From a virus, in IMG/VR virus record IMGVR_UViG_3300033146_003395, positions 1-64,000 of that record: 64,000 bases of DNA; one strand, 5' to 3'. The notes under the pieces are model-generated. The model did no database searches, was not told the DNA's origin, and saw nothing but the letters and a program-made list of their open reading frames with translations. The translations under genes were made by a program, and so were the position numbers. Shown piece by piece: positions 47,162-63,005 of the stretch; position 1 is the first letter of the stretch; each line of letters opens with the position of its first letter.

Positions 47162-47170
47162 GGAAAAAGA

Positions 47171-47622: not shown

Positions 47623-47822
47623 TGGAATTAAATATTGTTTATATTGAAGACCACGATGAAGAAGACCAAGAGGCGAAATTTGTTTGTCCTCAATGTCACG
47701 GCATCGTAGAGTATCAAACATTTGAGAGAAAATCAAGTAATCCAATTTATGATTGGAATTGCGGAAGTTGTTTCAGTGCTGTACCAGTAGAAGAATTACA
47801 CCTAAAATTGAAGGAGAAATAG
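47622..47822 (+). CDS. zinc-ribbon protein
   Basis: CPQC..CGSC. Confidence 0.6.
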   Translation: MELNIVYIEDHDEEDQEAKFVCPQCHGIVEYQTFERKSSNPIYDWNCGSCFSAVPVEELHLKLKEK

Positions 47823-48064
47823 TGAAAGAACAATATCAAGAAACGTGGCAAAGAAAATGGGGATTTAGTAAACTAGAATTTCACCCACTATTACTAGCAG
47901 CAGTATTCGGATTTACTGGATTATTTCTTGGTAAAGTATATTTTGATATGGCTTTATTATTTTTATTCTACACTGTAGTGTATTTCATTATAGATGTTGT
48001 ATTAATTGGTGCCAGAATATTCTGGGCAGGTTATAAAGAAATGAAAAAAGATACTGAGATTTAA
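47822..48064 (+). CDS. membrane protein
   Basis: GTG 47822 after GGAG. Two TM segments. Confidence 0.55.
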   Translation: MKEQYQETWQRKWGFSKLEFHPLLLAAVFGFTGLFLGKVYFDMALLFLFYTVVYFIIDVVLIGARIFWAGYKEMKKDTEI

Positions 48065-48114
48065 TCTCGGTCTAATAATATTATAGTATAATAATATAAA
48101 CAGGCAGGAATGAA

Positions 48115-49518
48115 ATGGACGAAATAATCTACCTATGTATGGGATATTTTGAAGCAAAAGGTGCAAATTTTATTACAAACACTGGAAAAGCTGTTCAAGT
48201 AGAATATCAAAATGATAACTCATGGTTTTGGTACAGTGATTACCCATATAAATTGCATCACCATGATAAGTGGAAATCAATTGATGCTTTCTCTGAAATC
48301 ACGAAACTTAAAGAACATAAAAAATTATGGCAAATTAAGTGTGACCAAGATATGACAGATTTACTACAATCTGACGAGCAGGAGTTCTATCAGATTCAGG
48401 TCGATACACAAGACTTAACTGCTCATTCAAAAGATGTAAGTTGTTTCCTAGAAAATTATAATATACTAAAAGTTAAGTCTCCAATGGCTACAAGAAAATC
48501 TAACATTATTGAAGAGACAATTAAACAGTGTAACACACAAAATAAAAGTGTACTGTTTATTACAAATAGGGTTTCACTTTCTCACGATATAGCTGACAAA
48601 TATGCTCAATATGGACTTAAGCATTATCAGAAAAGAGAGTACAATAAAGGTGATAATCTTGTTGTACAATTTGACTCGTTATTTTATTATAATCCAGATG
48701 ATTTTGATGTTGTTATTTTAGATGAGGTCTCATCACTAATTTTATATATGACTGATACTTATCAAGGTAAAGAAGAAAGATTTAACGATAACCTGAATAC
48801 TTTTTCAGCCTTAAAAACTAAGCAGTTCTTAATATTAGATGCTTTCATTATTAACTTTCCTTTTCATGGGAAAACTCTAGGAATTTATAACAAGTTTAGA
48901 GAAGAGCTGCAAGTAATTGAGTACTCAGATAAACCAAATTTTGAGGCTAAGATTGTTCGTGAAACTGGTAAAGGTTTAATCTCAGTGTCAAGCAATGAGA
49001 AAAGATTCTTAACTAATTTAGAAGCTAAACTCAGAAAACGCGGTTATAAAGTTTTAATGTTAACAGGTGACACAAAAGATAAGCCCAGGGTTTATAAAAC
49101 GCTAGAAATGCGAACCATTCCTTATGATGCAATTCTGTATAGTCCAACATTAACAGTTGGTGTAAGTATTTTCGCTGAGATTAAACATCATTTTCACTAT
49201 GATAACTCAGGAACTATATCAGTGATTGACTCTATGCAAATGACCAGAAGAGTTAGGAATGCTAAAGAACTTCACTATTTTATCAGAGGTAGAGCATCAT
49301 ATAAAGCAACAGATATTAACAATATTGAACGTAATTTAAAAGAGTTCAGAATTATGAATGAGTATGGTGTAACTTTCGGGATTACTAATACTGGTAAAAT
49401 GCTAGCCGAATTTAGAAGGACTAAAAATATCCTAGCAAATTCTCACAAGTATGCTTTCCGTTCATTATTGTTATATCAATTTAAAGCAGTAACTTATAAT
49501 AATCAGAGGGTTTATTAA
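48115..49518 (+). CDS. SF2 helicase-like protein (origin-binding protein/UL9-like)
   Basis: VKSPMATRKS (atypical Walker A), LFITNRVSL, VILDEV, YSPTLTVGVS, QMTRRVR. Confidence 0.7.
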   Translation: MDEIIYLCMGYFEAKGANFITNTGKAVQVEYQNDNSWFWYSDYPYKLHHHDKWKSIDAFSEITKLKEHKKLWQIKCDQDMTDLLQSDEQEFYQIQVDTQDLTAHSKDVSCFLENYNILKVKSPMATRKSNIIEETIKQCNTQNKSVLFITNRVSLSHDIADKYAQYGLKHYQKREYNKGDNLVVQFDSLFYYNPDDFDVVILDEVSSLILYMTDTYQGKEERFNDNLNTFSALKTKQFLILDAFIINFPFHGKTLGIYNKFREELQVIEYSDKPNFEAKIVRETGKGLISVSSNEKRFLTNLEAKLRKRGYKVLMLTGDTKDKPRVYKTLEMRTIPYDAILYSPTLTVGVSIFAEIKHHFHYDNSGTISVIDSMQMTRRVRNAKELHYFIRGRASYKATDINNIERNLKEFRIMNEYGVTFGITNTGKMLAEFRRTKNILANSHKYAFRSLLLYQFKAVTYNNQRVY

Positions 49519-49556
49519 TCCTCTGAATCCTCTAATTCTTTTTAAAACTTAAGGTA

Positions 49557-49613
49557 TTTAAGCTCCGTTTAATGTAAAACATGGTATAATATAGTATATA
49601 AAGAAAAGAAGGA
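49557..49613 (+). promoter_or_regulatory. early promoter repeat
   Basis: TTTAAGCTCCGTTTAATGTAAAACATGGTATAATATAGTATATAAAG. Confidence 0.8.
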
Positions 49614-49619
49614 TAAATT

Positions 49620-49955
49620 ATGGAAGCTAAAATATTACATTTTAACGATACAATCCGTAGAGATATAAACGGAGCTGGAAGTAGATTAGAACTTAAATCA
49701 TTAGCCTTTGAGGGTTATTTAAACTTAGGTTATAATACAGTTGCTAGAGTCCTGGTATCTGGTAATACTGATGAGATCTTAAGAAATTCATTTAAACTTA
49801 CAAATTCATTCGATACTTTCTGGGGAGATAATGCAGATGTAACTTGTTATAATCCTAAATGTCGTTCAACTTCAGTTGGTGATTTAATCCAGGTAGGAAA
49901 TGAAATTCATATTGTTGCATCAGCAGGATTTGAATATCTTTGTGAGGTAAAATAA
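49620..49955 (+). CDS. hypothetical early protein (RSTSVGD motif)
   Basis: RSTSVGDLI..V...GF resembles YodL-like phage proteins. Confidence 0.55.
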   Translation: MEAKILHFNDTIRRDINGAGSRLELKSLAFEGYLNLGYNTVARVLVSGNTDEILRNSFKLTNSFDTFWGDNADVTCYNPKCRSTSVGDLIQVGNEIHIVASAGFEYLCEVK

Positions 49956-50662
49956 TGCAAGAATTAGACACTTATAATAAATACGTTAAAGAGTACGCTC
50001 ATTTATTTGATAGAGATTTTGAAGGTGGTTTAAGTAACCCTGAGATTATTGAGCTTGCTAATGCTGTTAAACAAGTAAATTATATGATTAATAATAAGGC
50101 AAAAAATCTTAGAAATATTTACGATTACCAAAAGAAATGTTTAACATTTCCAGAGTATGATGAAAGACATAGCAAAACATTTAAGGGATATGGTAGAATA
50201 TATTTTGATAGATTTGTTGAAAATATTAATTCAGTAAATTTCTTTGAATTGCTTACATCAAAACGTAAGAAAAATTCTAATATCATTTTTAAAACAGATA
50301 ATCATAGAGATGAATTTAATGCTAAAACATTTAGTGATATGTTTAATCAATTCAAATTAATTTGTGATGAGTATGATGATTATTTTAATAACCAAGAATT
50401 TTATATTAAGAGATTCTTAGATACTGGTGATTCTACTAAAGATAAAGTAGTATCTTATGATAGACAATCACTTTATATTGGATATTTTGACGAGAGTGCA
50501 GCAGATATTTCTGGACTAGTTTATAATATTAACCATGATAAGGATAGTGTTTTCGATTTTCATACAGTAGAATTTTCAGTTCCTTTAGAAAAAATAGATA
50601 ACAAATATTATCAAGGTCTAAATGATTACATGAAAAACTTTTTTCCAGAGTATATAGTATGA
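49955..50662 (+). CDS. hypothetical protein, PEYIV tag
   Basis: Ends NFFPEYIV. Confidence 0.7.
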   Translation: MQELDTYNKYVKEYAHLFDRDFEGGLSNPEIIELANAVKQVNYMINNKAKNLRNIYDYQKKCLTFPEYDERHSKTFKGYGRIYFDRFVENINSVNFFELLTSKRKKNSNIIFKTDNHRDEFNAKTFSDMFNQFKLICDEYDDYFNNQEFYIKRFLDTGDSTKDKVVSYDRQSLYIGYFDESAADISGLVYNINHDKDSVFDFHTVEFSVPLEKIDNKYYQGLNDYMKNFFPEYIV

Positions 50663-50922
50663 TTAAAAACCCAACAGAACAACAATTGCAAGCTTTAGAT
50701 TTTAATGTTATTGTATATATTACAGTCCGTAAAGAAAAGATTAAGTGTTTCTCTGGAAATTCATTACCAGATAATCTAAGAGGTACAACTTTTAAAGCAT
50801 CTCGCACTGGCTCACATACAATACAACCTAATAAACCATTAGGTGGATATTGGCATGACATTGTAGCTGAGCAGATAGAAGAGATTTATACTAAGGATGA
50901 AGATACTGAGTATTTTGTATGA
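50659..50922 (+). CDS. small protein, TEYFV tag
   Basis: Ends DEDTEYFV. Confidence 0.7.
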   Translation: MIKNPTEQQLQALDFNVIVYITVRKEKIKCFSGNSLPDNLRGTTFKASRTGSHTIQPNKPLGGYWHDIVAEQIEEIYTKDEDTEYFV

Positions 50923-51275
50923 TTAAAGAATGGGACCAATATCACCAGTATTTTTATACCCCTACAGATATTAATAATATCAAACCTGGTGATGTAATTT
51001 ACAGAATCAAAATAAAAATGATGGACTATATTGAAGAGACTTATAGAGTCCTAGAAATTGATGAAAATGGTTTACATTCAAGAGCTATAATCTGTAATAT
51101 GTTTGATGGTCCAGTGGAGAAAGTGGCCTTAGGCATACTTCCAAGGTTTTATATAACGTACGAACAGATAGTTGAACATAATGTAAATCTAGCAAGGGAT
51201 GGGTTTCCGTGGGATAGACCATACAATTTAATAGTAAAAGGGGACCAGTTAGAATTCCCTGAATATTATATATAA
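50919..51275 (+). CDS. small protein, PEYYI tag
   Basis: Ends QLEFPEYYI. Confidence 0.7.
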   Translation: MIKEWDQYHQYFYTPTDINNIKPGDVIYRIKIKMMDYIEETYRVLEIDENGLHSRAIICNMFDGPVEKVALGILPRFYITYEQIVEHNVNLARDGFPWDRPYNLIVKGDQLEFPEYYI

Positions 51276-51283
51276 GGATTAAA

Positions 51284-51532
51284 ATGAAAACAGTAGATGT
51301 ATTACTAGAAGACCAAGATTTTATGGATAAGTATTGTACAGCATCAATTAGTGCACATTTTTGGAAATCAGACCATAGAATAGTAATAAACAAACACCTA
51401 GTGGGAAAAGGTTTATTAAACTGTAGAATGATAAGTGTAAGACTTTTAGAAACACTAGATGGATATCAATTTGATTGGAAATTCGTTAAGCAAGAAATTA
51501 ACCAGTTAGAATTCCCTGAATATTACGTATAA
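51284..51532 (+). CDS. small protein, PEYYV tag
   Basis: Ends QLEFPEYYV. Confidence 0.7.
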   Translation: MKTVDVLLEDQDFMDKYCTASISAHFWKSDHRIVINKHLVGKGLLNCRMISVRLLETLDGYQFDWKFVKQEINQLEFPEYYV

Positions 51533-51549
51533 ATAACAAAAGGATTAAA

Positions 51550-51723
51550 ATGCAAGGATTAAGTATAGATGTTAAAGACATCGAAAAGTTAAGTGATGAG
51601 GAGATGGAGAAGTTATTTGAAGTCTTAGATATAGTAGAAGAAATTACAGTTACTAATGGTGCTACACCTGTTTCTAAATTATTGAGTGTAGAGTATTACA
51701 ATATATTAATGGAGGGAATGTAA
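51550..51723 (+). CDS. 57-aa acidic protein (not in track)
   Basis: TATAAATA 51528-51535, AAGGA RBS. MQGLSIDVKDIEKLSDEEMEKL... Confidence 0.55.
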   Translation: MQGLSIDVKDIEKLSDEEMEKLFEVLDIVEEITVTNGATPVSKLLSVEYYNILMEGM

Positions 51724-51992
51724 TGAAACAATTACAACTAGATTTAAACATTGATTTAATCACAATGCAATGTAAACCAGATGATAACTTTGAGATTTAT
51801 AGTTATATAGATTTTAATCGTAAAAAATTAGAAGTCTATGTTAATGATGAGCAACCAATTAAAATTAATATTGAGAAGCTTGCAAAAAAGCGTTTAAATA
51901 TTAAGAATTTCTGGGATAAAGTTCAAGACGTAAAATTCCAAGTGGATTTTACTAAAGAGGAATTCGCAGCAATTTATTATATAAAGGATTAA
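51723..51992 (+). CDS. hypothetical protein
   Basis: Coupled ORF. Confidence 0.6.
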   Translation: MKQLQLDLNIDLITMQCKPDDNFEIYSYIDFNRKKLEVYVNDEQPIKINIEKLAKKRLNIKNFWDKVQDVKFQVDFTKEEFAAIYYIKD

Positions 51993-51994
51993 TA

Positions 51995-52306
51995 ATGGAA
52001 ATAAGAATACAATATAGAACAAGTACGCATGAGGGTGATGACTTTTTTGATAGCACAGCCGAAGCGATTGAGTATCTAATGGGATTAGAGGCAGAAATAG
52101 AAGAAGAAATTGCAGCAGATGAAGAAGAATATATGACAGAATCTGAAGAAGAAGAATTTGCGTGCTTACCAGATAGAGTAAGTGTTTCTAAAGTACAAAG
52201 AAGTTATAACAAAACTACTATAGAAGTTGAACTAGCAGAATATAAAGAAAACGGTTTTGAAATTACGTATGAAGGTAAAACGGGTTATACACTGGAGAGA
52301 AAATGA
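51995..52306 (+). CDS. acidic hypothetical protein
   Basis: AAGGA RBS. Confidence 0.6.
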   Translation: MEIRIQYRTSTHEGDDFFDSTAEAIEYLMGLEAEIEEEIAADEEEYMTESEEEEFACLPDRVSVSKVQRSYNKTTIEVELAEYKENGFEITYEGKTGYTLERK

Positions 52307-52674
52307 TTGTTAAAATCAGTACATACAAAAACCGAAAAGGCTTAGCGGAGCTTTTAATACCTGAACTTCCGTTTTATGTGCTGGATAAAGAGGAAGATGA
52401 GCCTAGTCATTATTTTAAAGCCGTTTCAATGTCTAAGAAATATTACTGGGATACACCTTATAAATTAGATAAGAATGGCCAGAATTTTCATAGCGGAAAC
52501 TCTAAAAAACTTGCAGTCATGGCTGGACAAGAAATTTACAAGACTGTAGAAGAAGTCCAGAATGCTTTAATTAAAAGAAAAGTAGAAACAGTAAAAGAAT
52601 TGTTTCCAGAAATTTTATATCTTTATAATGATTATACAAAATTCATGGAAGAATACCCAGAGCATTTTCTATAA
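52303..52674 (+). CDS. protein with PEHFL tag
   Basis: Ends EEYPEHFL. Confidence 0.65.
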   Translation: MIVKISTYKNRKGLAELLIPELPFYVLDKEEDEPSHYFKAVSMSKKYYWDTPYKLDKNGQNFHSGNSKKLAVMAGQEIYKTVEEVQNALIKRKVETVKELFPEILYLYNDYTKFMEEYPEHFL

Positions 52675-52693
52675 ATAAACTAAAAGGAACACT

Positions 52694-52909
52694 ATGACAT
52701 TTAAATCAATTTTTGAGAACAAGAAATCTGATGTAGATACTATATACGATTTTATAGAAAAAAGCGAAGATAACGAACAAAAGGTTTGGGATTATGTATC
52801 ATACGAATTTGATATTTATTATAATGATGGAAATGATATAGAAACACTAGATGATTTAATAGAGTTTTTATCTAAGAAACAACTAAAAGAATTAGCTGCT
52901 TCTATATAA
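52694..52909 (+). CDS. late acidic protein, candidate internal head protein
   Basis: TATAAATA 52670-52677. MTFKSIFE leader. Confidence 0.55.
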   Translation: MTFKSIFENKKSDVDTIYDFIEKSEDNEQKVWDYVSYEFDIYYNDGNDIETLDDLIEFLSKKQLKELAASI

Positions 52910-53659
52910 GCTATCGTTATAGTCTATCATGAATTTCGTTAATTCATGACTTTTGATACTTTCAAAAGATGCTAAATCTTTTGGGAGACAAGCTCCATCA
53001 AATCCTCTAACTCCATCCATACCAACTTGAGTATTTTCACCTAGTGGAATATTCTCTAACATCTGAGCAAGCTTACGAGCATTACCCGTACGGTCTTGTA
53101 CAAATTCCCAGAATAAAACTTTATAAGCCGAGTAGATATTTCTGATGTATTTAAAATCTGATGCTAGCTCTTTAGTAGTACACTCAAATTCAATTTCTGC
53201 TGTATTTAATATAGTATCACTTTTATAAAACATTTTAGCTTTTCTGATAAAATCTATATCTCCACCTAACACAATATAATCCTGTAAAGCGAAATCATTA
53301 ACTGCTGTATTCGCATTCAAGAATTCTGGATTATATACGAAATTAAAATTTGGGGGAATTGCCTCTTTTGGTAAAGTACTTTTAATTAATACTAATCCAT
53401 TAAAATCTTTTATATCTTTATATACAGATAAGAATTGCGATATATTACAACTACCGTCTGAATTTTCTGGTGTTCCCACACAAACTATTATAGTTTTTAT
53501 TCTACTTCCACCGAATCCTTCTTTTTCTGCAATTAAATCTTGGAATCTTTCATCTTTAGTTGTAGTACCTCTTTTAGGGTCGACTATTATTACTTCATCA
53601 TGTTTAATTACACTGTGAACAGCTTGACCCACAAACCCATATCCAATTATAGCTATCAT
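52892..53659 (-). CDS. UDP-glucose/GDP-mannose dehydrogenase family protein
   Basis: IIGYGFVG, CVGTP, IKST, NPEFL, GFDGACLPKD. Confidence 0.88.
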   Translation of the reverse strand: MIAIIGYGFVGQAVHSVIKHDEVIIVDPKRGTTTKDERFQDLIAEKEGFGGSRIKTIIVCVGTPENSDGSCNISQFLSVYKDIKDFNGLVLIKSTLPKEAIPPNFNFVYNPEFLNANTAVNDFALQDYIVLGGDIDFIRKAKMFYKSDTILNTAEIEFECTTKELASDFKYIRNIYSAYKVLFWEFVQDRTGNARKLAQMLENIPLGENTQVGMDGVRGFDGACLPKDLASFESIKSHELTKFMIDYNDSLYRSS

Positions 53660-54207
53660 ATTAAATCCTCTATTGCTTTTCTAGAGCCATCATAAATTTT
53701 AGTGACTCCATTTTTCTTAACTATCCCTCTTTGAATCTCACACATATAATTGTATGGCTCACAAAAATCTTTAATCTTTATATTATGCTTTTTGAATTCG
53801 CTGAACATTTTTTTACAGTCTTGATTAATTAGAGTAAATCTTTCTCTGAGTCCTTTAGTTTCCCAAAGTTTCAGATGATTATGACCGTGCCCACCAATGA
53901 AGCAGAAAGGAGAATTTTGTATTTCTTTAATTTCAGTCCAACTCATATAATCACTATAGTCGCCTGTAAAAGCATTGATATGAGCATCAGAGCATTTAAT
54001 AAATTCTTCAGAAGCTTGTACTGTTTCTGGTCTGATAATTGCAGTAGAAATAAAAAATATTTTTATTGTACTGAGAGTTTTCAAGAATTCTAGGGCTCTA
54101 TACTGGCTCACTAGCCCATCATCGAAGCTGAGGATAAAATTTTCTAAGGTATCTTTCATATCGTAGAATTTATCGTCCCACTCATGTATCATTAAAACTT
54201 GTTTCAT
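53656..54207 (-). CDS. polysaccharide deacetylase (NodB-like)
   Basis: LSFDDG, MSWTEIKE, IGGHGHNH, F..PY. Confidence 0.8.
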   Translation of the reverse strand: MKQVLMIHEWDDKFYDMKDTLENFILSFDDGLVSQYRALEFLKTLSTIKIFFISTAIIRPETVQASEEFIKCSDAHINAFTGDYSDYMSWTEIKEIQNSPFCFIGGHGHNHLKLWETKGLRERFTLINQDCKKMFSEFKKHNIKIKDFCEPYNYMCEIQRGIVKKNGVTKIYDGSRKAIEDLI

Positions 54208-54265
54208 ATACTATTATAACTAATTAAGATTAAACTAGTATTAAAATATATTAAATTCTTTTCAA

Positions 54266-54316
54266 ATTTAAGCTCGGTTTAATGTTAAACATGGTATAAT
54301 ATAGTATATAAAGGAT
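54266..54316 (+). promoter_or_regulatory. early promoter repeat
   Basis: TTTAAGCTCGGTTTAATGTTAAACATGGTATAATATAGTATATAAAGGAT. Confidence 0.8.
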
Positions 54317-54321
54317 AAAAC

Positions 54322-54405
54322 ATGAAATTAACAGCATTACAAATAGCAATGCAAATGCCTCGCCGTAGAGGTGATGTATCAGAATCAGGTCGTGATGGTA
54401 ACTAA
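54322..54405 (+). CDS. 27-aa micropeptide
   Basis: First ORF after early promoter, AAGGA RBS. MKLTALQIAMQMPRRRGDVSESGRDGN. Confidence 0.5.
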   Translation: MKLTALQIAMQMPRRRGDVSESGRDGN

Positions 54406-54448
54406 GTTTATCATCTTAATAAAAACTAAAATAAAAGAAGGAGTTCTT

Positions 54449-54523
54449 ATGAACTACATTTACAACAAAGCATTAACACTAGCACTATTTTTAAGTTACT
54501 TAGGTTATACTTACTTTCAGTAA
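54449..54523 (+). CDS. 24-aa hydrophobic micropeptide
   Basis: AAGGAG RBS. MNYIYNKALTLALFLSYLGYTYFQ. Confidence 0.5.
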   Translation: MNYIYNKALTLALFLSYLGYTYFQ

Positions 54524-54531
54524 GAGATAAA

Positions 54532-54756
54532 ATGGATATTAAAAACAACCGAGTTTATCGCTTAGAAATAGGTGATAATGAAACATTGGTATATACAGTT
54601 AAACAAGTAGCAGAAACCTTATGGGATTGTCAGATACTTGAAACTGGCAATAATATGTATCTGAATAAAGGTGAAATAGGTCGATTTGATATTGGGTGGT
54701 TCGCTGAAGAATTAGGTACTAAAGCAGAATATGAGGAGTATTTCGTATTTTTATAA
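54532..54756 (+). CDS. small protein, EEYFV(FL) tag variant
   Basis: Ends AEYEEYFVFL. Confidence 0.65.
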   Translation: MDIKNNRVYRLEIGDNETLVYTVKQVAETLWDCQILETGNNMYLNKGEIGRFDIGWFAEELGTKAEYEEYFVFL

Positions 54757-54775
54757 ATATATTATAAGGATAAAA

Positions 54776-55666
54776 ATGCCTAAGAAGAAAACGCAAGAAG
54801 ATTATTTATTAGAATTAATTAATAAGTCAATATATATAATTCCATTAGAGACATATATTAACTTTAATACAAAGATTTTACATAAATGTATATGCGGAAA
54901 TGAATGGGAAGTTATGCCTAAGTTAATATTAAGAGGTGTTTTATGTGGGTGTAAAGGTACGGCTAAACCAAATACTAATAATTGGTATTTAAATAAGCTT
55001 ATAAAAAACAAAATAACTGTTATTCCATTAGAGGCGTATATTAACTCTAATACAAAGATTTTACATAAATGTATATGTGGAAATAAGTGGTTTATTACCC
55101 CAAACGATATAATAAAAGGGGTAAAGTGTGGGTGTATTAATGGTTTATCCCAAATTAAATCAAACAAATGGTATCTAGAAAAATTAGAAGAAAAAGATAT
55201 AAAAGTAATACCATTAGAACCTTATATTAAATCAAGGACTAAAATTTTACATAAGTGTTACTGTAATAATGAATGGTTAGGTAGACCAATGGATGTGCTA
55301 AAAGGAATGGGCTGTGGATGTAAACGTAACTATTCTTTAAGAGGTGTAGAATTTTATAGAGGTAAGAAAACAATCTTATATTATATAAAAATTAAAGGAT
55401 TGAATAACGAAGATTTATATAAAATCGGTGTTACTTTATATAAAGAATCAATAGAAAAAAGTTTAAAGAAAAGATTCTATAGACAAGAATATGAGATTAT
55501 ACAGACTGATATTTTCAAAGATGGTAGCGAAGCGTTCACATTAGAACAACAGATATTAGAATTTAACAGAGAATACAGATATTTAGGCGAGAAAGTTCTT
55601 AAATCTGGAAATACTGAATTATTTATTAAGGATATAACGTATGAAAAAAGTACCCAAAAAAACTGA
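54776..55666 (+). CDS. endonuclease with zinc repeats and GIY-YIG-like C-terminus; paralog of 36792
   Basis: Start moved to ATG 54776 after AAGGA and TATAAATA 54752-54759. Confidence 0.75.
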   Translation: MPKKKTQEDYLLELINKSIYIIPLETYINFNTKILHKCICGNEWEVMPKLILRGVLCGCKGTAKPNTNNWYLNKLIKNKITVIPLEAYINSNTKILHKCICGNKWFITPNDIIKGVKCGCINGLSQIKSNKWYLEKLEEKDIKVIPLEPYIKSRTKILHKCYCNNEWLGRPMDVLKGMGCGCKRNYSLRGVEFYRGKKTILYYIKIKGLNNEDLYKIGVTLYKESIEKSLKKRFYRQEYEIIQTDIFKDGSEAFTLEQQILEFNREYRYLGEKVLKSGNTELFIKDITYEKSTQKN

Positions 55667-55877
55667 TTTTGTTCTAGCTGCCAATAAAGAAGTATATCTT
55701 TATTGGGGTGGTGTAGCAGGCGGAGAAGCAATTATCGTAAAAGATAGAAATCAGTTCACTACACAAATGGCTAATAAATATATTGTAGCTACTTGCACTG
55801 TTCAAGATGTACAAAACCACGGCTATGATTCAGCTAATGAATATTTCTCAGAACAATATCCCGAGATGTTTGTATGA
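55641..55877 (+). CDS. small protein, PEMFV tag
   Basis: Ends EQYPEMFV. Confidence 0.7.
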   Translation: MKKVPKKTDFVLAANKEVYLYWGGVAGGEAIIVKDRNQFTTQMANKYIVATCTVQDVQNHGYDSANEYFSEQYPEMFV

Positions 55878-56209
55878 AAATAAATTCAGAAATTAACACA
55901 GGTAAATTATTTGTCTTAAAATCTAAAGAATATTGCACCAATAATAATTATCTTTTTGATGAAGACAATGATTGTTTCCTTAACAAAGAAGAACATCTAT
56001 TTTGGTTTAATAGTACAATAGATGAAATTTGTCAAGTAGGATTTATTGATGTTAATTGTTATGGGAAAATCGTTGAGGTTTTTAACGTAGTTACCGGAGA
56101 CCAAATAAATTTGTGTTACCGTGTAAATAATGCAGCTGATTATTCAATAATTGATGATTGGATGGGAAAATATGTTGACCCAGAAAAAGAACCGGAGTAT
56201 TTTGTATGA
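55874..56209 (+). CDS. small protein, PEYFV tag
   Basis: Ends EKEPEYFV. Confidence 0.7.
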   Translation: MKINSEINTGKLFVLKSKEYCTNNNYLFDEDNDCFLNKEEHLFWFNSTIDEICQVGFIDVNCYGKIVEVFNVVTGDQINLCYRVNNAADYSIIDDWMGKYVDPEKEPEYFV

Positions 56210-56421
56210 CAAATTTTCAAAAGAAAATAATTGGTGCAATTTTTTATAAAAGACCTGCAAAAAGAGGAAACTTATTAGTAAGTTATATGGCTGAGCATGA
56301 GAAATATTATGAATGTCTCTATGCTACAGGTGCGACTTATCTTATAGAAAAAGATGACGTGATATGGGTTGGAGAATCTGAAGAACAATTTAAAGATGAG
56401 CACCCGGAGTATTTTGTATGA
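56206..56421 (+). CDS. small protein, PEYFV tag; tandem paralog of next ORF
   Basis: IG.IFYKR...YEC...G..Y.IEKD.V.WVG.S.EQF. Confidence 0.7.
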   Translation: MTNFQKKIIGAIFYKRPAKRGNLLVSYMAEHEKYYECLYATGATYLIEKDDVIWVGESEEQFKDEHPEYFV

Positions 56422-56630
56422 AAACAGATTTTATGACAATAGGGTATATCTTTTATAAGAGGACAAATGATAGAGGCACAAGGTTATCAAAATATATTAA
56501 TGAATTTGAAAAACATTATGAATGTGCTTTTATAACTGGTGGAAGTTATATGATTGAAAAAGATACTGTTCTATGGGTTGGAAAATCTGTAGAACAATTC
56601 GAAGAAGAAAATGCAGAGTACCTAATATGA
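56418..56630 (+). CDS. small protein, AEYLI tag; tandem paralog of previous ORF
   Basis: Ends ENAEYLI. Confidence 0.7.
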   Translation: MKTDFMTIGYIFYKRTNDRGTRLSKYINEFEKHYECAFITGGSYMIEKDTVLWVGKSVEQFEEENAEYLI

Positions 56631-56863
56631 AATTAACTAGAATGAAAAAAGTTGAAGATATTTACGAAAAAGATTATTGTCTTGTTAACGATGAGTTATT
56701 TTGTGTTACTAGTGTTTATTCAGGATTTAATAACACTATAATTATGGCTTATAATGAAGAATCTCATAAATATCAGCCATCGCTTTCTGAGGTTCAATAT
56801 AACTTTGGACCAGGAACTAGTTTTGAAGATATTAAAAGAGTATTTGCGGAGTATTTTGTATGA
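56627..56863 (+). CDS. small protein, AEYFV tag
   Basis: Start moved to coupled ATG 56627. Confidence 0.7.
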   Translation: MKLTRMKKVEDIYEKDYCLVNDELFCVTSVYSGFNNTIIMAYNEESHKYQPSLSEVQYNFGPGTSFEDIKRVFAEYFV

Positions 56864-57105
56864 AAACAGATAAAGGTCAAAATTTCTATGCCTTAGAGTA
56901 CAATGATACTGAGTGGATGACACAAAACGGTTTGGTATTAGAAATTAAAGATATGGACAAAATGCATGTGTTTAATAGTGTAAGGTTACTGCAAAGACGT
57001 AACAAAATTTTAGAACAAAGTGGGGAAGAACTCTACAAAATTCCTAGGTTATTAATAGCTTCTTACGAAAAATTTGAAGATGAGATGCCGGAGTATTTTG
57101 TATGA
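56860..57105 (+). CDS. small protein, PEYFV tag
   Basis: Ends DEMPEYFV. Confidence 0.7.
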   Translation: MKTDKGQNFYALEYNDTEWMTQNGLVLEIKDMDKMHVFNSVRLLQRRNKILEQSGEELYKIPRLLIASYEKFEDEMPEYFV

Positions 57106-57365
57106 TTAAATTTGGGGTAGGTGATACTGTAATCTACAAATATAGGGATACATTAATCCTTGCGAAGATCAAAGAAGAAAAAGAATGGCAAGATTCTTTA
57201 TGTGCATACGATACAGAAGTTATTTGTGGTAATCAAGATATTTATGGGGAACATTGGGAAATAGCTAAAGTTATTGAGAGGGGTAATGTCGAAGTATTAG
57301 CTGTTGTAAACACTGAATTTGATTATCATACTTGGATTCAAGACAACCCAGAGTATTTTATATAA
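57102..57365 (+). CDS. small SH3/KOW-like protein, PEYFI tag
   Basis: KFGVGDTVIY. Ends QDNPEYFI. Confidence 0.7.
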   Translation: MIKFGVGDTVIYKYRDTLILAKIKEEKEWQDSLCAYDTEVICGNQDIYGEHWEIAKVIERGNVEVLAVVNTEFDYHTWIQDNPEYFI

Positions 57366-57396: not shown

Positions 57397-57756
57397 GTGA
57401 TAAAATATAGTGATTTAAATCAAAAACAAAAAGACAGAATTACCAATGGATGTGGCACTAAAGGCGGATGGATTAAACCACCAAATTTTATTTTCAAAGC
57501 ATCTTGTAATCAACACGATTTTTATTACTGGAGAGGTGTAACCGAGCACCAAAGAGAAATAGCGGATACTTCATTTTACAAATACATGAAACTTGATATT
57601 AAAAATGCTAATTATGGGTTCTTAAAAAGAAGTTGGTACAGTACTTGGGCTTTTAGTTATTATAAAGCAGTAAGAATATTTGGTAAGAAAGCTTTCAATT
57701 TTGAAAGAGAAATGACTCAGGCAGATTTACAAATTATTACTCAAACATACTCATAA
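57397..57756 (+). CDS. phospholipase A2-like / DUF1353-like late protein
   Basis: NGCG..F..SCNQHDFYY..R..AD..F...Y.AVR.FG. GTG start after AAGG. TATAAATA 57361-57368. Confidence 0.6.
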   Translation: MIKYSDLNQKQKDRITNGCGTKGGWIKPPNFIFKASCNQHDFYYWRGVTEHQREIADTSFYKYMKLDIKNANYGFLKRSWYSTWAFSYYKAVRIFGKKAFNFEREMTQADLQIITQTYS

Positions 57757-58639
57757 TTAGTTTCTCAAGTCCATATTTAGGCTCGTAGATTGTTCGCATC
57801 TTAGAGATATCTGGAATCCTAGAAGTAATCTCAGCATTAGTTCTAGCATCTGGAATACTTACAATCCTATGAAAATCCCCTGATACTTTTCCAACTAATG
57901 AAGCCAATTCATTCATAGTAATTGTATTATTATCATTACCTATATTAAGTATTTCGCCATTCATTTCTGTTATAAGTAATTCTAATACATTTACAGCATC
58001 TCTAATATCACAGAAACTTCTTACTTGTTCCCCTGACCCATATACTTCTATATCTTCTTGTGTTTTTGCAGCCATAACAAATCTAGGTAAAACCATACCA
58101 TAATTTGGAAGTTGCCCAGGCCCAGTAACATTAAAAAATCTTACAACTGTAAAAGGGAATGTATAAGTTTTAATTAAGAATTCACTCATAAGTTTCTGAC
58201 AAGCATACCCCCATCTCATTTGGTCCGGTGCACCTATTGTAAGCATATCTGTTTCTTTCATGGGAGTATCACTTGAGCCATATACCTCACTTGTTGAAGC
58301 ATAAATTACTTTAGGCTGGTGCTTCTCAAATAATGGAAACAAGTTGTTATTAATATTGAAAGAATTTTGCAGTGTTTCATTAGGGTTTTCACCAATTAAA
58401 TCTACACCTATACTTGAAGCAAAGTGATAAACTATATCAGCTTTTGCTACTATGGTTTCAATCATAACATTATCTGTTAAGTCTCCTAAATCTATATTAT
58501 ACACATCTTTTGTATTTTCTTCGTTTGAAGTTTTAAAATTATCTATGCGATAAACGTTATGTGTTTCTTTAAGTTGATTGTACAAGTGTGTGCCAATAAA
58601 ACCCGCACCACCCGTGATAATTATATTAAGTTTTTTCAT
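57737..58639 (-). CDS. NAD-dependent nucleotide-sugar epimerase/dehydratase
   Basis: ITGGAGFIG, STSEVYG, YACQK (YxxxK), RFFNVTGP, G.Q.RSF. Confidence 0.92.
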   Translation of the reverse strand: MKKLNIIITGGAGFIGTHLYNQLKETHNVYRIDNFKTSNEENTKDVYNIDLGDLTDNVMIETIVAKADIVYHFASSIGVDLIGENPNETLQNSFNINNNLFPLFEKHQPKVIYASTSEVYGSSDTPMKETDMLTIGAPDQMRWGYACQKLMSEFLIKTYTFPFTVVRFFNVTGPGQLPNYGMVLPRFVMAAKTQEDIEVYGSGEQVRSFCDIRDAVNVLELLITEMNGEILNIGNDNNTITMNELASLVGKVSGDFHRIVSIPDARTNAEITSRIPDISKMRTIYEPKYGLEKLIMSMFE

Positions 58640-58680
58640 ATTTTATTATAACGTATTATTATTAAATGAAGATTAAAGAA

Positions 58681-58742
58681 GTGAGCAGCCTGTCTATATA
58701 GACTTTAGGAAAAAGTAGGAGATAACGTATAAACTGCTCATG
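58681..58742 (-). ncRNA. candidate late small RNA
   Basis: TATAAATA at 58744-58751, then UGAGCAG...CUGCUCA closing stem with inner CCU-GUCUA/UAGAC-AGG hairpin. Confidence 0.35.
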
Positions 58743-58754
58743 ATATTTATAAAA

Positions 58755-59570
58755 TTATGATTTTCTTAATCTTCCTTTAGAAAATCCATCATATAGGTAA
58801 AATTCTGTAGGGTTGATAAGTTTAGATATAATTTTGTTATTTATCCAAATTCTATCCTTTACATTTGAAGAAAGTTTTTCTCTAGTTTCTTGTGAAATTT
58901 TATATATTACACCTTGCTGCCACCCATTATTTAGATAATAATCTAATTCATATATTTTAACCTTCTTTTGTTTTTTATCTATTTTATTAAATATAAAAAC
59001 TCTTCCTTTCTGCTCATTAGATATAGCCAATTTTCTTTCTTGTGTAAGTTCCTCTCTACCAATAGTATAATTTACTAAATCTATATCATTTATATTATCT
59101 CTAATATATTCACCTGTTATATTATTTCTCGCCCAAACTGTATTATAAACAGCCGATTTATCTTTAAGTTGTGAACTAGAATTCATAATATTACTTTTTA
59201 TATTATGTAATTTACCATACATAGGATTATTTTTACCTGAAACATCTCTTCCAAAAAAGCCATTCTTTTGCGCATAACTCATATTGATATAGTTATTATT
59301 TTTGACAACTTGATGTAATTTCTGAACTTTAAGTTCATGAATTAAAGCTATTTTTCTTCTATAAAATTTCTTTAATATACGAGTCTTAAATAAATGTGGG
59401 TTATTCTTTCTCTCGTGAATCCATATAGACTTATATCTTTTTGATGTAACTGTTCCATTATATCCATTTAATATTTTTTCTATTGATGTAGATCCTATAT
59501 ACCATTCAGGAAGTTTATCACCTGTATAATGAGTTAAATATGTGCAGTATTGTTTATTTGATGTAGACAT
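58755..59570 (-). CDS. GIY-YIG-like homing endonuclease; paralog of 25397
   Basis: YCTYLTHY..WYIGST..GYNG, GFFGRDVSGKNNPMYG. Confidence 0.8.
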   Translation of the reverse strand: MSTSNKQYCTYLTHYTGDKLPEWYIGSTSIEKILNGYNGTVTSKRYKSIWIHERKNNPHLFKTRILKKFYRRKIALIHELKVQKLHQVVKNNNYINMSYAQKNGFFGRDVSGKNNPMYGKLHNIKSNIMNSSSQLKDKSAVYNTVWARNNITGEYIRDNINDIDLVNYTIGREELTQERKLAISNEQKGRVFIFNKIDKKQKKVKIYELDYYLNNGWQQGVIYKISQETREKLSSNVKDRIWINNKIISKLINPTEFYLYDGFSKGRLRKS

Positions 59571-59591
59571 TGAAGTCTCCTATAATTAAAT

Positions 59592-59673
59592 TATAAGAGT
59601 GAATTACTAGGTTCAAATTAAATGTATATAGAGGAACCTAGTAGAGCTCTATACACATTTAATATCTCTTATA
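59592..59673 (-). ncRNA. structured RNA element, copy 3 (most divergent)
   Basis: UAUAAGAG-AUA-UUAAAUGUGUAUAGAG-CUC-UACUAGGUUC-CUCUAUAUACAUUUAA-UUU-GAACCUAGUA-AUUCA-CUCUUAUA. TATAAATA 59677-59684. Confidence 0.75.
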
Positions 59674-60508
59674 CTTTATTTATACTTTGTGCCCTTTTAA
59701 AATATTCTATTTTTTGATTTATCTTATCATAATTTTTATCATATAAAATATGTTCATGCCAAAAATATACATTTTCTAATTCATCATTAGTTAGTGTAGA
59801 TATATGTGCATAACCTTCGCCAATTTGATACTTCTCAATATATTCCATCTCAATTAAATTATTGGCATAGATATAATCCATTGCAAATTCTTCTATATCT
59901 TGTTGTGGCCTATCATGACAATATTCTGCCCATATAGGCCCAGGATTTTCAGTGAGTCTCTCAAGTTCATTATGAAATAGTGTATAGAAACCAGAATCTT
60001 TCTTTGAAATGGTGAAACCAGTATCGAATGTTTTCCAACCTTCAGGTAAAGGTCTCTGATCCTTAACTGAAACAGTATCATAAACACCACAAATAGGTTT
60101 ATTATAATTAACAATTGGGCTTGGTAAAGGTTTTATCAAACTCATATCACAATCTATATGAATCATAGTTTTAAAATTTAGATTTTCTTCACACCATTTA
60201 CCAACTAATGGAACTGACCAATAGCCACAAAAGAAATTCTCTGTTTCCTTCATATATTCTTCCATATATATTACATCCATCTCTTTAAGTTTCTGGGCAT
60301 CTTCAGTTTTAAGTGTATTGTTAGTAGGACAAATAGCATAGATTGGAATATCTTTATATATTCCTCCATTTTCTCGCCAGGCTTTAACAGATAAAATAAT
60401 TTCATCAGCATATAATCTTTGGTTACTATATACTCCTTGTTGATTATTTAAATTGTCTTCATTATTTTCAACAACATACATTAATATTGTTTCTTCTATA
60501 TTATTCAT
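59669..60508 (-). CDS. putative GT-A glycosyltransferase
   Basis: HIDCDM DxD motif, FDTGF. Located in the sugar cluster. Confidence 0.6.
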   Translation of the reverse strand: MNNIEETILMYVVENNEDNLNNQQGVYSNQRLYADEIILSVKAWRENGGIYKDIPIYAICPTNNTLKTEDAQKLKEMDVIYMEEYMKETENFFCGYWSVPLVGKWCEENLNFKTMIHIDCDMSLIKPLPSPIVNYNKPICGVYDTVSVKDQRPLPEGWKTFDTGFTISKKDSGFYTLFHNELERLTENPGPIWAEYCHDRPQQDIEEFAMDYIYANNLIEMEYIEKYQIGEGYAHISTLTNDELENVYFWHEHILYDKNYDKINQKIEYFKRAQSINKV

Positions 60509-61121
60509 TATTTTCCTTAAAATATTTTATTACCGATAAGTCTTTATAGTCTCTGTATGATCCTGCATTGTCAGGTCTTAAATCTATTTGATTCAGAATT
60601 AGTAATCCTTGCGCTGCCATCTCTGGTGACATATTCATATGAAAACCTTGTACCCAATCTTCCATTTCTATAATAGGACTACGCCCATCAAATGCCATCA
60701 TTTTAAGTCTTTCATAAGTATCTGCATCATCTGTTAAAATTGCCCCACCTTTTCCGATATTAAGTCTCTTCTTCTGATGAAAGCTTAAGCACTGAATAAA
60801 TCCAGGTCTATACATACCTCTATGAAAATCTACTGCTGAGTCTATAATATTAGTCCCTTCAATTTCATAAGAGCCTTTCCATTTCTGGTCTGTGAACTCT
60901 ACATTAAATCCAGCATTTACAATACTGTGTGGAACACCGACATAAGTACTCTTAGGTACATATAATGTGTTAGCCTCAACAGGTATATATGCTGTTTTAT
61001 TTAATAAACTTAAGCTTAAAAATATTGCATTAGTACAACTATCAGTTAAGACACAATACTTAGCTCCTGTATATCTACAAATTTCTTCTTCAAATTTGTC
61101 TATAAAAAATTGATTATTCAT
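60501..61121 (-). CDS. DegT/DnrJ/EryC1/StrS PLP aminotransferase (short form)
   Basis: FEEEI..Y.GAKY.V...SCTNAI, IDSA, SFHQKKRL..GKGGAILT. Confidence 0.85.
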   Translation of the reverse strand: MNNQFFIDKFEEEICRYTGAKYCVLTDSCTNAIFLSLSLLNKTAYIPVEANTLYVPKSTYVGVPHSIVNAGFNVEFTDQKWKGSYEIEGTNIIDSAVDFHRGMYRPGFIQCLSFHQKKRLNIGKGGAILTDDADTYERLKMMAFDGRSPIIEMEDWVQGFHMNMSPEMAAQGLLILNQIDLRPDNAGSYRDYKDLSVIKYFKENNE

Positions 61122-61122
61122 T

Positions 61123-62388
61123 TTACTTTTCCTTTATTCTTTGAATATCTAGACTCGAACAATGTAGTGACCCAGCAAATATATGCGAATGTCTTAATTG
61201 CACTGGAATAACTTCAAATCCATTTTCTTCTAAAACTTCAATTGTTCCTAAAGCATCTTCCTGAACTATTACAGTTTTTTTATCAATGCTTAATATATTA
61301 ACTGACATTCCTTCATCACTAGCTAGTCTTAAATTTTTATTAGTTAAATATTTAATTTCTCTTTCTGGTGTATTCTTTGGATATAAGTAAATATATCCAT
61401 TATTAGGATGGAACTTACTTGGTAATTTCTTCCATACTTCTGGATAATTAGGATTAACCAAAAAAGTATTCTCATTTAAACTGACCAATACACCATCAAT
61501 GTGAGAATCACATAATTTTACTATATGAAATTCTTTATTAGGAAAGAAACTTTTTAACCATAAAAATCCAAGATATTGATTATAATTACTTATGTTAACT
61601 ATAATATCATCATTAAGCCTTAAAAAATTAGCCCCGTCAATTGCAGCTTCATAACTACTAGGAATATTATTAAAATCTCTATTCTTTTCCCAATCTTCAA
61701 TATCAACACTACTCTCGGTTAATATCGTTAAGGGGGCTTTTATCCATTGGGTTTTAAAATTATTAGTAACCTCTTTAAATATATTATACATAGCTAAATT
61801 TTCAAAAGCTCTATTTCTGACAATTACCGGGGTTTCTATTAATTTATCATCAATGACAATTGTTATATCTCTTACATTATTTGCTGGTGATAATTCAGAT
61901 TTAAAAGTGGTTGTTTTAAAAGGTATAACTTGTTTTAGAATATCAGGTCTATAAACAGTTATTCCCAATTCTTGTAATATAGTAGCTAAGTTATTTAAAT
62001 CTTCAATGCGTTCTTTTAATATTATATCATTAATTATATACTCATCACCTAAATCATTATATTCATATACAGATTGACCAAGATTTGACTTATAAAAATT
62101 TTTAAATGTAAAATCTATTACACGTTTAGATAATTCTAGTTCATTGCCAATTATAACTGCTTTTAATGTATCATAACTATTAGAACTATTAACTTCTATT
62201 TTTTTCTTTTTACAATTATCAAAATGCCATCTTTTAATTGCTCTAGGGTCTCCTTCTAAAAAACAATGTGGGCATTTAACTTTTTCTGTAAATCCTCGAG
62301 GTTTACCAATTTTACTATCTGATATTTTTTTTCTAGTTTCTTTGGTTAAGGTCTTTCCTTTATTGCCATTTGAAATCTTTTGTTTCAT
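61123..62388 (-). CDS. amidinotransferase (glycine/inosamine-phosphate type) with N-terminal NUMOD3 + zinc-finger fusion
   Basis: VNSSNSYDTLKAVIIG, VRD, IDGAN, HID, GSLHCSSLD. The first ~63 aa (KETRKKISDSKIGK, CPHC..KRWHFDNCK) match the C-terminus of the 25397 endonuclease. Confidence 0.85.
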   Translation of the reverse strand: MKQKISNGNKGKTLTKETRKKISDSKIGKPRGFTEKVKCPHCFLEGDPRAIKRWHFDNCKKKKIEVNSSNSYDTLKAVIIGNELELSKRVIDFTFKNFYKSNLGQSVYEYNDLGDEYIINDIILKERIEDLNNLATILQELGITVYRPDILKQVIPFKTTTFKSELSPANNVRDITIVIDDKLIETPVIVRNRAFENLAMYNIFKEVTNNFKTQWIKAPLTILTESSVDIEDWEKNRDFNNIPSSYEAAIDGANFLRLNDDIIVNISNYNQYLGFLWLKSFFPNKEFHIVKLCDSHIDGVLVSLNENTFLVNPNYPEVWKKLPSKFHPNNGYIYLYPKNTPEREIKYLTNKNLRLASDEGMSVNILSIDKKTVIVQEDALGTIEVLEENGFEVIPVQLRHSHIFAGSLHCSSLDIQRIKEK

Positions 62389-62407
62389 TATAATTCCTAA
62401 TTTTGAA

Positions 62408-62488
62408 TTATAAGAGGACTTTCCACGGTCAGATTAAAAGTGTAGATGGACCGTGGAAGAGCATCTACACTTTTAATATCTCTTATAA
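62408..62488 (-). ncRNA. structured RNA element, copy 4
   Basis: UUAUAAGAG-AUA-UUAAAAGUGUAGAUG-CUC-UUCCACGGUC-CAUCUACACUUUUAA-UCU-GACCGUGGAA-AGUC-CUCUUAUAA. TATAAATA 62491-62498. Confidence 0.75.
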
Positions 62489-62550
62489 CTTATTTATATT
62501 ATAACGGATTAATATTAAAATAATCTTAAATTGCCTGAAATTTAGTCCAA

Positions 62551-62601
62551 ATTTAAGCTTGTTTTAATGTTAAACATGGTATAATATAGTATATAAAGGA
62601 T
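62551..62601 (+). promoter_or_regulatory. early promoter repeat
   Basis: TTTAAGCTTGTTTTAATGTTAAACATGGTATAATATAGTATATAAAGGAT. Confidence 0.8.
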
Positions 62602-62606
62602 TTAAT

Positions 62607-63005
62607 ATGAATATTTTAGATAAAATCAGAGAATACGTAGATACAGATGTTATTATTGTTTTAGACAATGAGCAAATTACAGAAATTGATGAAGATAGCA
62701 AAGAGATTCTTTGTGTAGAAGGTGGAGTATATTCATTTGAAAGTATTGAAGACCGTTATGCTGAAGATATAATGTTTTATAAATCTTATGAATTAGAAAT
62801 GACTTATGATATTCGTGATTTTATCAAAGACCTTAAAAGATCTGAAAAAGACTTAGATAAATCTAAAGCTAAAAAAATGTTAGTATTAGAAATTAATGAA
62901 AGATATTTATTAAATCCTACTGAATTAGAAGAGTGTTATAACTTTGAATTTTTTGAAAATTTAAATGCAATTACAACACATAAATTTACACGAATGAAAG
63001 ACTAA
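62607..63005 (+). CDS. hypothetical early protein
   Basis: AAGGA RBS. Confidence 0.65.
   Translation: MNILDKIREYVDTDVIIVLDNEQITEIDEDSKEILCVEGGVYSFESIEDRYAEDIMFYKSYELEMTYDIRDFIKDLKRSEKDLDKSKAKKMLVLEINERYLLNPTELEECYNFEFFENLNAITTHKFTRMKD

Follow-up and report, generated by a model that had tools for sequence, protein, structure and literature searches.

The 64,000-nucleotide (nt) stretch of DNA analysed here, called the window throughout, comprises positions 1 to 64,000 of the IMG/VR virus record IMGVR_UViG_3300033146_003395 and is part of an 81,735-bp contig of a T4-like phage with a G+C content of 29%. The contig carries genes for the portal, prohead protease, major head protein, topoisomerase II and ligase; no phage in the collection has a head protein more than 45% identical to this one, and those that come closest are T4-like phages of Vibrio and Campylobacter. 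An earlier model-made reading of the sequence alone (hereafter the sequence-only reading) had proposed a structured RNA element on the minus strand of the window at 59592-59684, at the junction of an open reading frame (ORF) at 59669-60508 and a nuclease gene at 58755-59570, both on the minus strand. The element, its copy 3 and our copy C, is a genuine member of a conserved family of folded leaders in uncultured T4-like phages, which extend from a late promoter to the ribosome-binding site (RBS) of a nuclease gene. Sequences are given below as minus-strand RNA in window numbering.

All parts of copy C were located base by base at the proposed place and on the proposed strand. In the order of transcription (minus strand, 59684-59568), the locus reads promoter, P1a, P2, 10-mer, P1b, Shine-Dalgarno (SD) sequence and ATG. 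The T4-type late promoter TATAAATA (59677-59684) is followed after 3 nt by P1a, UAUAAGAG (59666-59673), by AU, and by the 17-nt 5' arm of P2 (P2a, 59647-59663). The P2 loop (59634-59646) consists of a conserved CUC and the 10-nt segment UACUAGGUUC, and is followed by the 17-nt 3' arm (P2b, 59617-59633). After UU comes GAACCUAGUA (59605-59614), the exact complement of the loop 10-mer; the two segments are the 3' and 5' strands, respectively, of an alternative 10-bp helix. AUUCA leads to P1b, CUCUUAUA with a following AU (59590-59599; CUCUUAUA itself 59592-59599), and after UUA the segment AUUAUAGGAG (59577-59586), containing the SD sequence AGGAG (59577-59581), is separated from the AUG by ACUUCA. 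P1b is complementary to P1a, with which it forms P1, and also to the SD region, with which it forms a local hairpin, P3, as anti-SD arm; AUUAUAGGAG is the 3' arm of P3, and the free energy (dG) of this hairpin in copy C is -8.1 kcal/mol compared with -2.4 kcal/mol for shuffles. P1a is almost the same word as the SD-side arm, UAUAGGAG, and both compete for P1b; P1a is thus a proposed anti-sequestor.

P2 of copy C has 17 pairs, of which 16 are Watson-Crick and one is the G-U pair between G59654 of P2a and U59626 of P2b, which reads C/A on the plus strand, as the sequence-only reading had noted. The 10-bp pairing between the loop and its 3' complement is Watson-Crick throughout. Compared with shuffled sequences, the minus-strand RNA of the region folds with a z-score of -3.24 (0 of 200 shuffles as good) and the plus-strand RNA with -2.64 (3 of 200). 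The gene behind copy C encodes a protein of 271 amino acids (aa) with NUMOD3, a match to phrog_10820 ("HNH endonuclease") and a GIY-YIG-like N-terminus. Upstream, the promoter and P1a overlap the last codons of the ORF at 59669-60508, whose stop codon TAA (59669-59671) lies inside P1a. This overlap had been described earlier, together with a glycosyltransferase label for the ORF, and only the overlap stands. The protein has no Pfam hit and no PDB sequence hit, matches only a function-less PHROG, and has one Atlas neighbour cluster, in which 20% of the members carry Glyco_transf_8; the label, unconfirmed by any of these comparisons, is a lead only.

Six copies of the element are present in the 81.7-kb genome, four of them within the window. 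Copies A (190-303), B (27708-27822) and D (62386-62498), each measured from promoter to ATG on the minus strand, precede a GIY-YIG-like gene cut by the window start, a DUF7487/phrog_5104 gene (26904-27710) and a gene at 61123-62388, respectively. Copy C had been described as a divergent copy in which most P2 and loop positions differ and all pairings hold. Every change in copy C relative to A, B and D does keep pairing, which identifies it as a diverged yet structure-preserving member; "most" is an overstatement, as 4-6 of 16 P2 pairs differ in both bases and 1-2 in one, and the 10-bp helix has both bases altered in 4 of its 10 pairs. Outside the window, copy E is an orphan with an intact leader (genome 72482-72360, in L048:8300-8486, which is genome 72300-72486). 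It carries a 42-bp tandem duplication spanning P1b, the SD sequence and the first codons, followed by a 12-codon GIY-YIG-like stub, beyond which lies a radical-SAM-type gene; the arrangement suggests that the nuclease gene was deleted and its leader stayed in place. Copy F (genome 64452-64313, L048:313-452) is decayed and scores 56.9 bits with the family model R1 described below. Its promoter, P1a, P2 and loop are intact, a 4-nt insertion breaks the 3' 10-mer, and both P1b and a downstream gene are missing.

Relatives were collected with sequence patterns and covariance models. A first pattern matched 47 stretches in viral contigs, 14 of the matches being real elements, and a pattern that included the promoter gave 22 viral and 69 metagenome stretches. 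R1, a covariance model of P1 and P2 used at an E-value of 1e-5 or better, matched 90 places in phage contigs when 94 sources were searched, of which 78 are distinct. Cultured phages gave no match in a megablast search with 58000-63000 and only short hits, with E-values of 0.4 or worse, in a blastn search with the element. Seven pattern stretches were found in prokaryote genomes; none scored with R1, and the one inspected was a chance match in coding-like sequence. Rfam 15 gave no match at or above the gathering threshold over the whole window and three matches far under threshold around copy C (E-values 1.6-9.2).

In a MAFFT alignment (A1) roughly half of the rows were misaligned at the 10-bp helix, and model-based alignments (A3 and A5) were therefore used together with our own element-by-element parse. 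The parse covers 77 elements and omits the decayed copy F, which lacks P1b; the folding statistics keep 70-72 of the 77, omitting elements with a mis-parsed helix or no recognisable ATG-started ORF. In the R1 alignment, double-sided changes occur at all 15 modelled pairs of P2 and the share of paired cells is 98.0%, compared with 32-58% when the partner is slid by 1-3 columns. In the alignment made with R2, a model of P1 and the loop-to-3' helix (66 distinct sequences), all 10 pairs of the alternative helix change on both sides and 97.2% of cells are paired, the slid controls giving 18-57%. The structure-level conservation that the sequence-only reading had seen among the copies of one genome thus extends, as covariation of both helices, to the family. 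Since these alignments are fitted to models, each element was also parsed independently, which yielded 69 distinct P2 arms and 68 distinct loop segments. The duplex energy of cognate arms was -20.1 kcal/mol for P2 and -16.2 kcal/mol for the alternative helix, compared with -4.6 and -5.8 kcal/mol, respectively, for non-cognate combinations. P1 is near-invariant; its variation amounts to a single compensatory change from UA to CG and some G-U pairs.

The exceptions to Watson-Crick pairing identify the functional strand. An A-C mismatch on one strand is a G-U pair on the opposite strand. In the interior of P2, the parse, which scores only Watson-Crick pairs as regular, recorded 34 G-U pairs, 3 A-C and 19 other mismatches, and the model alignment 48 G-U and 7 A-C cells. 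This excess shows that P2, at least, is selected as RNA of the gene-sense strand. The lone G-U of copy C, from which function as minus-strand RNA had first been argued, fits sense-strand RNA and is weak evidence when taken alone; the family counts carry the strand call. These counts also bear on a DNA-level role, in which the element would serve as a recombination or mobility cassette for swapping nuclease genes, or as a cruciform or protein site. Such a role would suit the presence of one leader before at least six unrelated nuclease families, the survival of orphans after gene loss (copies E and F) and the arrangement of conserved blocks around variable helices. The sense-strand G-U excess and the freely varying complementary helices nevertheless point to selection for RNA pairing rather than for a protein site or for double-stranded DNA, and module swapping may explain the spread of the leader without being its function, which makes the DNA-level role quite improbable in our judgement.

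P2 and the alternative helix are each supported pair by pair, and in this sense all pairings hold, as had been claimed; they do not hold simultaneously in a single pseudoknotted fold. The linker between the loop segment and P2b is 0 nt in 64 of 77 elements. P2b is directly followed by the 3' segment in 52 of 77, the remaining 25 having 2-7 nt in between. In copy C the two linkers are 0 and 2 nt. P2 is 14-23 bp long and the alternative helix 7-13 bp. Linkers of 0-3 nt would need to span the length of P2 for both helices to coexist, which they are unable to do as judged from A-form helix geometry rather than by computation, and the two helices therefore exclude each other. An H-type pseudoknot, with both helices formed together, does not fit the short linkers and the 14-23 bp of P2.

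The sequence-only reading had missed the third partner in this arrangement. P1b pairs locally with the SD region in all 72 leaders that have a start codon, examples being CUCUUAUAAU with AUUAUAGGAG (copy C) and UUAUAAUC with GGAUUAUAA. The mean dG of P3 is -6.8 kcal/mol, compared with -2.05 kcal/mol for shuffled tails, and the SD sequence is fully paired in 45 of 70 leaders with a recognised SD motif and fully unpaired in none. A three-way change is found in L023:2594, the one element with a different P1b: P1a reads ACAAGAG, P1b reads CUCUUGUAU, and the start region reads GGAUACAA, so that P1a and the start region have both changed to match. It is through P3, and not through P2 or the 10-bp helix in themselves, that the element is most directly tied to gene expression.

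Taken with the nuclease genes that follow, P3 argues for a cis-acting 5' leader of late homing-endonuclease mRNA, probably acting on translation initiation through three competing segments. A separate small RNA made from the late promoter, consisting of P1-P2 and the 3' segment and acting in trans or in an antisense-like manner with the nuclease mRNA as a by-product, is a very improbable alternative. As would suit such an RNA, the structured part is compact, at ~85 nt, and starts where the transcript does. On the other hand, no terminator-like site follows the element or lies within 58600-62700, P1b is tied to the SD sequence of its own gene, and the helix sequences are private to each copy, so that no common trans target is apparent. 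An intrinsic terminator or insulator was likewise rejected on the absence of terminator-like sites in 58600-62700, where sigma-70-like sites are at chance level.

For the cis-acting leader the following sequence of events is proposed. Pairing of P1b (CUCUUAUAAU, anti-SD-like) with the SD region AUUAUAGGAG would form P3 and hide the RBS, and pairing of P1b with P1a (UAUAAGAG, which resembles an SD sequence) at the extreme 5' terminus of the late RNA would leave the SD sequence free. Between P1a and P1b would lie a two-state module, in which the long P2 hairpin brings P1a and P1b together, and the alternative helix, formed by the P2 loop and the 10 nt after P2, excludes P2 and would prevent P1. 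During transcription, P1 and P2 would form ahead of SD synthesis (ON); at equilibrium P1b would shift to the SD sequence (OFF), and the alternative helix may lock the OFF state. The conserved leader RNA of these late homing-endonuclease transcripts is probably bistable, and most likely it would limit the amount of nuclease made. The data show the helices with their covariation, the exclusion of one by the other through linker length, the RNA strand and the association with nuclease genes; from these we infer that the leader would act as a translational throttle on nuclease synthesis.

The order of events rests on predicted folding of late RNAs (n = 70). In T4, transcripts from late promoters start 6 nt after TATAAATA, and the RNAs were folded from that position; by the same rule, promoter spacing would place the late 5' end 1-4 nt before AAGAG. 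In prefixes that end at P1b, the predicted frequencies are 0.94 for P1, 0.96 for P2 and 0.02 for the alternative helix. In the full leader P1 falls to 0.15, and P1b is paired downstream at 0.70. P1 was confined to the P2 state (15 of 70 against 0 of 70). This suggests a leader that would be transiently ON during synthesis and OFF at equilibrium, a timing that is a thermodynamic prediction on A+U-rich helices. The two hairpins have similar energies, that of P2 being -18.8 ± 3.2 kcal/mol and that of the alternative -13.5 ± 3.2 kcal/mol.

Several observations weigh against this picture. The nearest-neighbour model gives P1 a frequency of only 0.12-0.15 at equilibrium, so that P1 may be marginal in vivo. 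In late leaders the P2 state is more stable than the alternative state by 4.8 ± 3.8 kcal/mol, the alternative winning in 7 of 70, and the stabilities of the two helices are uncorrelated (r 0.13, p 0.28). There is thus no sign of a tuned balance between them, and a tuned two-helix balance was rejected. Predicted SD accessibility is low and alike in late (0.28), read-through (0.24) and 5'-truncated (0.25) RNAs, with no difference between the first two. The strand lean of the 10-bp helix is weak (3 G-U and 0 A-C in the parse, 10 and 4 in the model alignment), and no RNA run holding 58000-62600 was found. The search patterns, moreover, required TATAAATA, AAGAG and CTCTTATAAT, that is, the promoter, P1a and P1b, so that the near-invariance of these blocks is partly ascertainment. 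The only scan that left P1b unconstrained found 7 new elements, all of which keep CUCUUAUA. In a scan free of P1a, 100 new loci among the 114 matches listed were searched with R1 and yielded no real element, which leaves P1a variation still poorly sampled.

The position of the late 5' end is also among the points in favour of another explanation, in which the element governs mRNA stability or processing, the 5'-terminal P1+P2 helix blocking 5'-end-dependent decay of the late transcript or the P2 duplex serving as an RNase III-type site, with the SD hairpin secondary. A 5' end lying 1-4 nt before P1a would make P1 a terminal helix, P2 is a long, near-perfect duplex (14-23 bp), and RNase E processing occurs around T4 seg genes according to the relevant passages of PMC2988022. 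This explanation leaves unaccounted for the covarying alternative helix and the match of P1b to the SD region in 72 of 72 leaders, and the other late genes of the phage have leaders of 14-31 nt without such structure. We hold it to be improbable, if somewhat less so than the DNA-level role.

The late-promoter reading of TATAAATA is a reasonable one from sequence context, since the portal gene and several other genes here have the motif 14-31 nt ahead of their ATG; in the leader-bearing genes of this genome the distance from promoter to ATG is 102-106 nt. A second TATAAATA lies at 58744-58751 on the minus strand, 3 nt past the stop codon of the copy C nuclease gene and 104 nt before the ATG of an epimerase gene (57737-58639). 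Late promoters thus stand on both sides of the nuclease gene, a setting reminiscent of the embedded promoters at T4 seg and mob genes. Upstream DNA of at least 300 nt was available for 61 elements. In 27 of these a co-directional ORF precedes the element, ending between 58 nt before and 10 nt after AAGAG; the other 34 lack one. Copies A, B and D lie in divergent intergenic regions with no co-directional upstream ORF. The overlap of copy C with its upstream gene is therefore not a family feature. Occlusion of P1a by ribosomes terminating upstream was rejected, as a stop codon falls within -9 to +10 of AAGAG in only 5 of the 27 and 34 of 61 have no such ORF. A leader mini-ORF was rejected as well: an AUG-UAG or short ORF begins 7-9 nt after AAGAG in several copies, and many elements, inspected by eye, have no start codon in P2a.

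The promoter bears directly on the closest known systems. In T4 and Aeh1, RBS-sequestering hairpins precede I-TevI, I-TevII, I-TevIII, segB and Aeh1 mobE, and a nested late promoter produces transcripts that skip the 5' arm, as described in the relevant passages of PMC2988022 and PMC3014915. The present leaders share with these masks, in the features given there, a nuclease gene (free-standing or intron-borne), an upstream TATAAATA, a local hairpin that pairs with the SD sequence, and the presumed purpose of limiting or timing nuclease synthesis; the downstream gene is a homing endonuclease. They differ from the masks as described in that the promoter lies ~75-95 nt upstream of the mask and the late RNA holds both arms. 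In copy C, TATAAATA occupies 59684-59677 and P1b, which forms the 5' arm of the mask, 59599-59590, so that the promoter is outside the mask. Here, moreover, the anti-SD arm is contested by an SD-like sequence at the 5' end, a pair of covarying, mutually exclusive helices lies in between, and one leader family serves many nuclease families, in contrast to one hairpin per gene.

These differences count against a classic T-even temporal mask, in which early or middle read-through RNA is inhibitory and a late promoter within the 5' arm bypasses the mask, as for I-TevI, gene e and Aeh1 mobE. The late promoter, the SD-pairing hairpin and the homing-endonuclease genes of that paradigm (PMC2988022 and PMC3014915, in the passages on these genes) are all present, and in read-through RNA P1 of copy C can extend through the promoter to 17 bp. 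The promoter is, however, upstream of both arms of the SD hairpin, so that late transcripts carry the whole mask; a co-directional upstream ORF, present in 27 of 61 elements only, is lacking at copies A, B and D; and late and read-through RNA do not differ in predicted SD accessibility. A temporal mask of this form is unlikely, at about the level of the stability element or marginally below it. The cis-acting leader is related in logic to the masks of T4 I-TevI and Aeh1 mobE and is built differently; we would class it as a new form of the endonuclease translational masks already known, the mask function here being a predicted one.

Hairpins of this kind have been partly noted before. Dassa et al. 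(2009) described hairpins in 15 of 16 endonuclease 5' untranslated regions of split-intein fractured genes, ten of which include TATAAATA, with two conserved motifs that pair on the stem, and likened them to mobE (PMC2677866, text passages). Two of our loci show the same arrangement as in that description. In L070 (3656-6454), the leader and nuclease are flanked on one side by the N-part of topoisomerase IV-A, joined to an intein N-half, and on the other by an intein C-half, joined to the remainder of the gene; in L063 (3-2155) they lie between a helicase with an intein N-half and an intein C-half. The topoisomerase IV-A-like and helicase genes are each broken into two ORFs. From this arrangement, the hairpins of Dassa et al. 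are probably the same leaders, the comparison being one of text description and not of sequence. The text passages of that paper describe a single hairpin, with no alternative 10-bp helix, P1b:SD hairpin, covariation or family model. A further likeness is seen in seg43(25) of Aeromonas phage 25, for which a very stable hairpin just upstream of the RBS is reported (PMC2988022, in the passage on this gene); this hairpin, at a seg-type nuclease gene, takes no part of the RBS into its own pairing, as is true of P1+P2, and the same passage describes no alternative helix or anti-SD arm.

Beyond phage nucleases, the leader invites comparison with regulated mRNAs of another class. As proposed above, P1a competes for the arm that would cover the SD sequence. 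In type I toxin mRNAs (hok, tisB), the SD sequence is held in local structure and a 5'-proximal standby or anti-sequestor segment governs ribosome access. These mRNAs resemble the leader in that the protein is harmful and refolding after synthesis sets an active window, as it would in the leader. They differ in that no antisense RNA partner is evident here, the RNA being a phage late transcript of other architecture. A ligand-binding riboswitch, with conserved unpaired core or junction nucleotides as a potential binding pocket, finds no counterpart in the pattern of conservation: the conserved bases are those of P1a, the loop CUC(U), P1b and the SD region, junctions measure 0-2 nt or differ in length, and helix sequences are free to vary.

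It is possible, and we put it forward tentatively, that the leader represents a hitherto undescribed type of riboregulator, which needs no ligand and times itself. The nascent RNA, with the terminal helix P1 stacked on P2 and the SD sequence free, would be ON and then switched OFF by P3, locked topologically by a helix that shares no P2 nucleotide, and as a portable cassette of at least six unrelated nuclease families it would allow a brief pulse of enzyme per transcript. No title or abstract opening found in the literature gave a sign of the alternative helix, of three-way competition or of a family model. Homing endonucleases need enough expression to spread and too little to harm the phage. 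In T4 each gene has its own hairpin and nested late promoter, whereas here one multi-helix leader, found across dozens of uncultured T4-like phages, serves many unrelated nuclease families. The leader thereby offers a clean natural model for ligand-free RNA switches, a metagenome marker for free-standing nuclease genes and their relics, and a candidate new Rfam family.

The variety of genes served is seen in the 65 downstream products of at least 100 aa, which fall into 12 clusters. The largest hold 28 GIY-YIG-like products and 21 that match phrog_655 ("homing endonuclease"); four products are copy-B-like and two copy-C-like, a further cluster of three has a representative that matched phrog_20046 and phrog_681, and seven are singletons, among them one phrog_681 endonuclease, two TnsA/DUF559-like proteins and one with T5orf172. 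The gene behind copy D (61123-62388, minus strand) is of mixed make-up. Its first ~100 aa are a remnant of a homing-endonuclease C-terminal DNA-binding region, with a NUMOD3-like repeat and a CPxC...WHFDNC zinc finger, and are followed by a phrog_25854 body, which ends in a Cys motif that we take to recall amidinotransferases. This may be a host-type gene that captured a nuclease remnant together with the leader.

Natural controls are supplied by paralogous nucleases of the same genome that lack the leader. The paralogue at 25397, singled out as such a control by the sequence-only reading, bears out that description: the unit at 25360-26050 on the plus strand has a late promoter (25360-25367), a 29-nt leader without the element and a nuclease gene (25397-26050), and R1 found no element at the locus. 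Its product is 59% identical to the copy C nuclease over 118 aa, and ends in the same zinc finger as that in the remnant behind copy D. Other nuclease genes without the leader are located at 8468-9148 (minus strand) and at 2654-3514, 36792-37655, 54731-55666 and 46496-46966 (plus strand); with these many further homing-endonuclease-like genes, the genome is very rich in such genes. Those at 36792, 46496 and 54731 share long DNA repeats (families D3, D5, D6 and D8).

Two further sets of repeats were observed in the genome. Family D1 comprises eleven copies, at 6477-6559 of the window and ten other sites, of a ~50-nt early-promoter-like cassette located before plus-strand gene blocks and built of a conserved upstream box, TGGTATAAT and then TATATAAAGGA. 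In families D7, D9 and D11 (window 42441-57119), many small plus-strand ORFs end in a CC(G/A)GAGTATTT(C/T)GTATGA junction, which also supplies the GGAG and ATG of the next gene.

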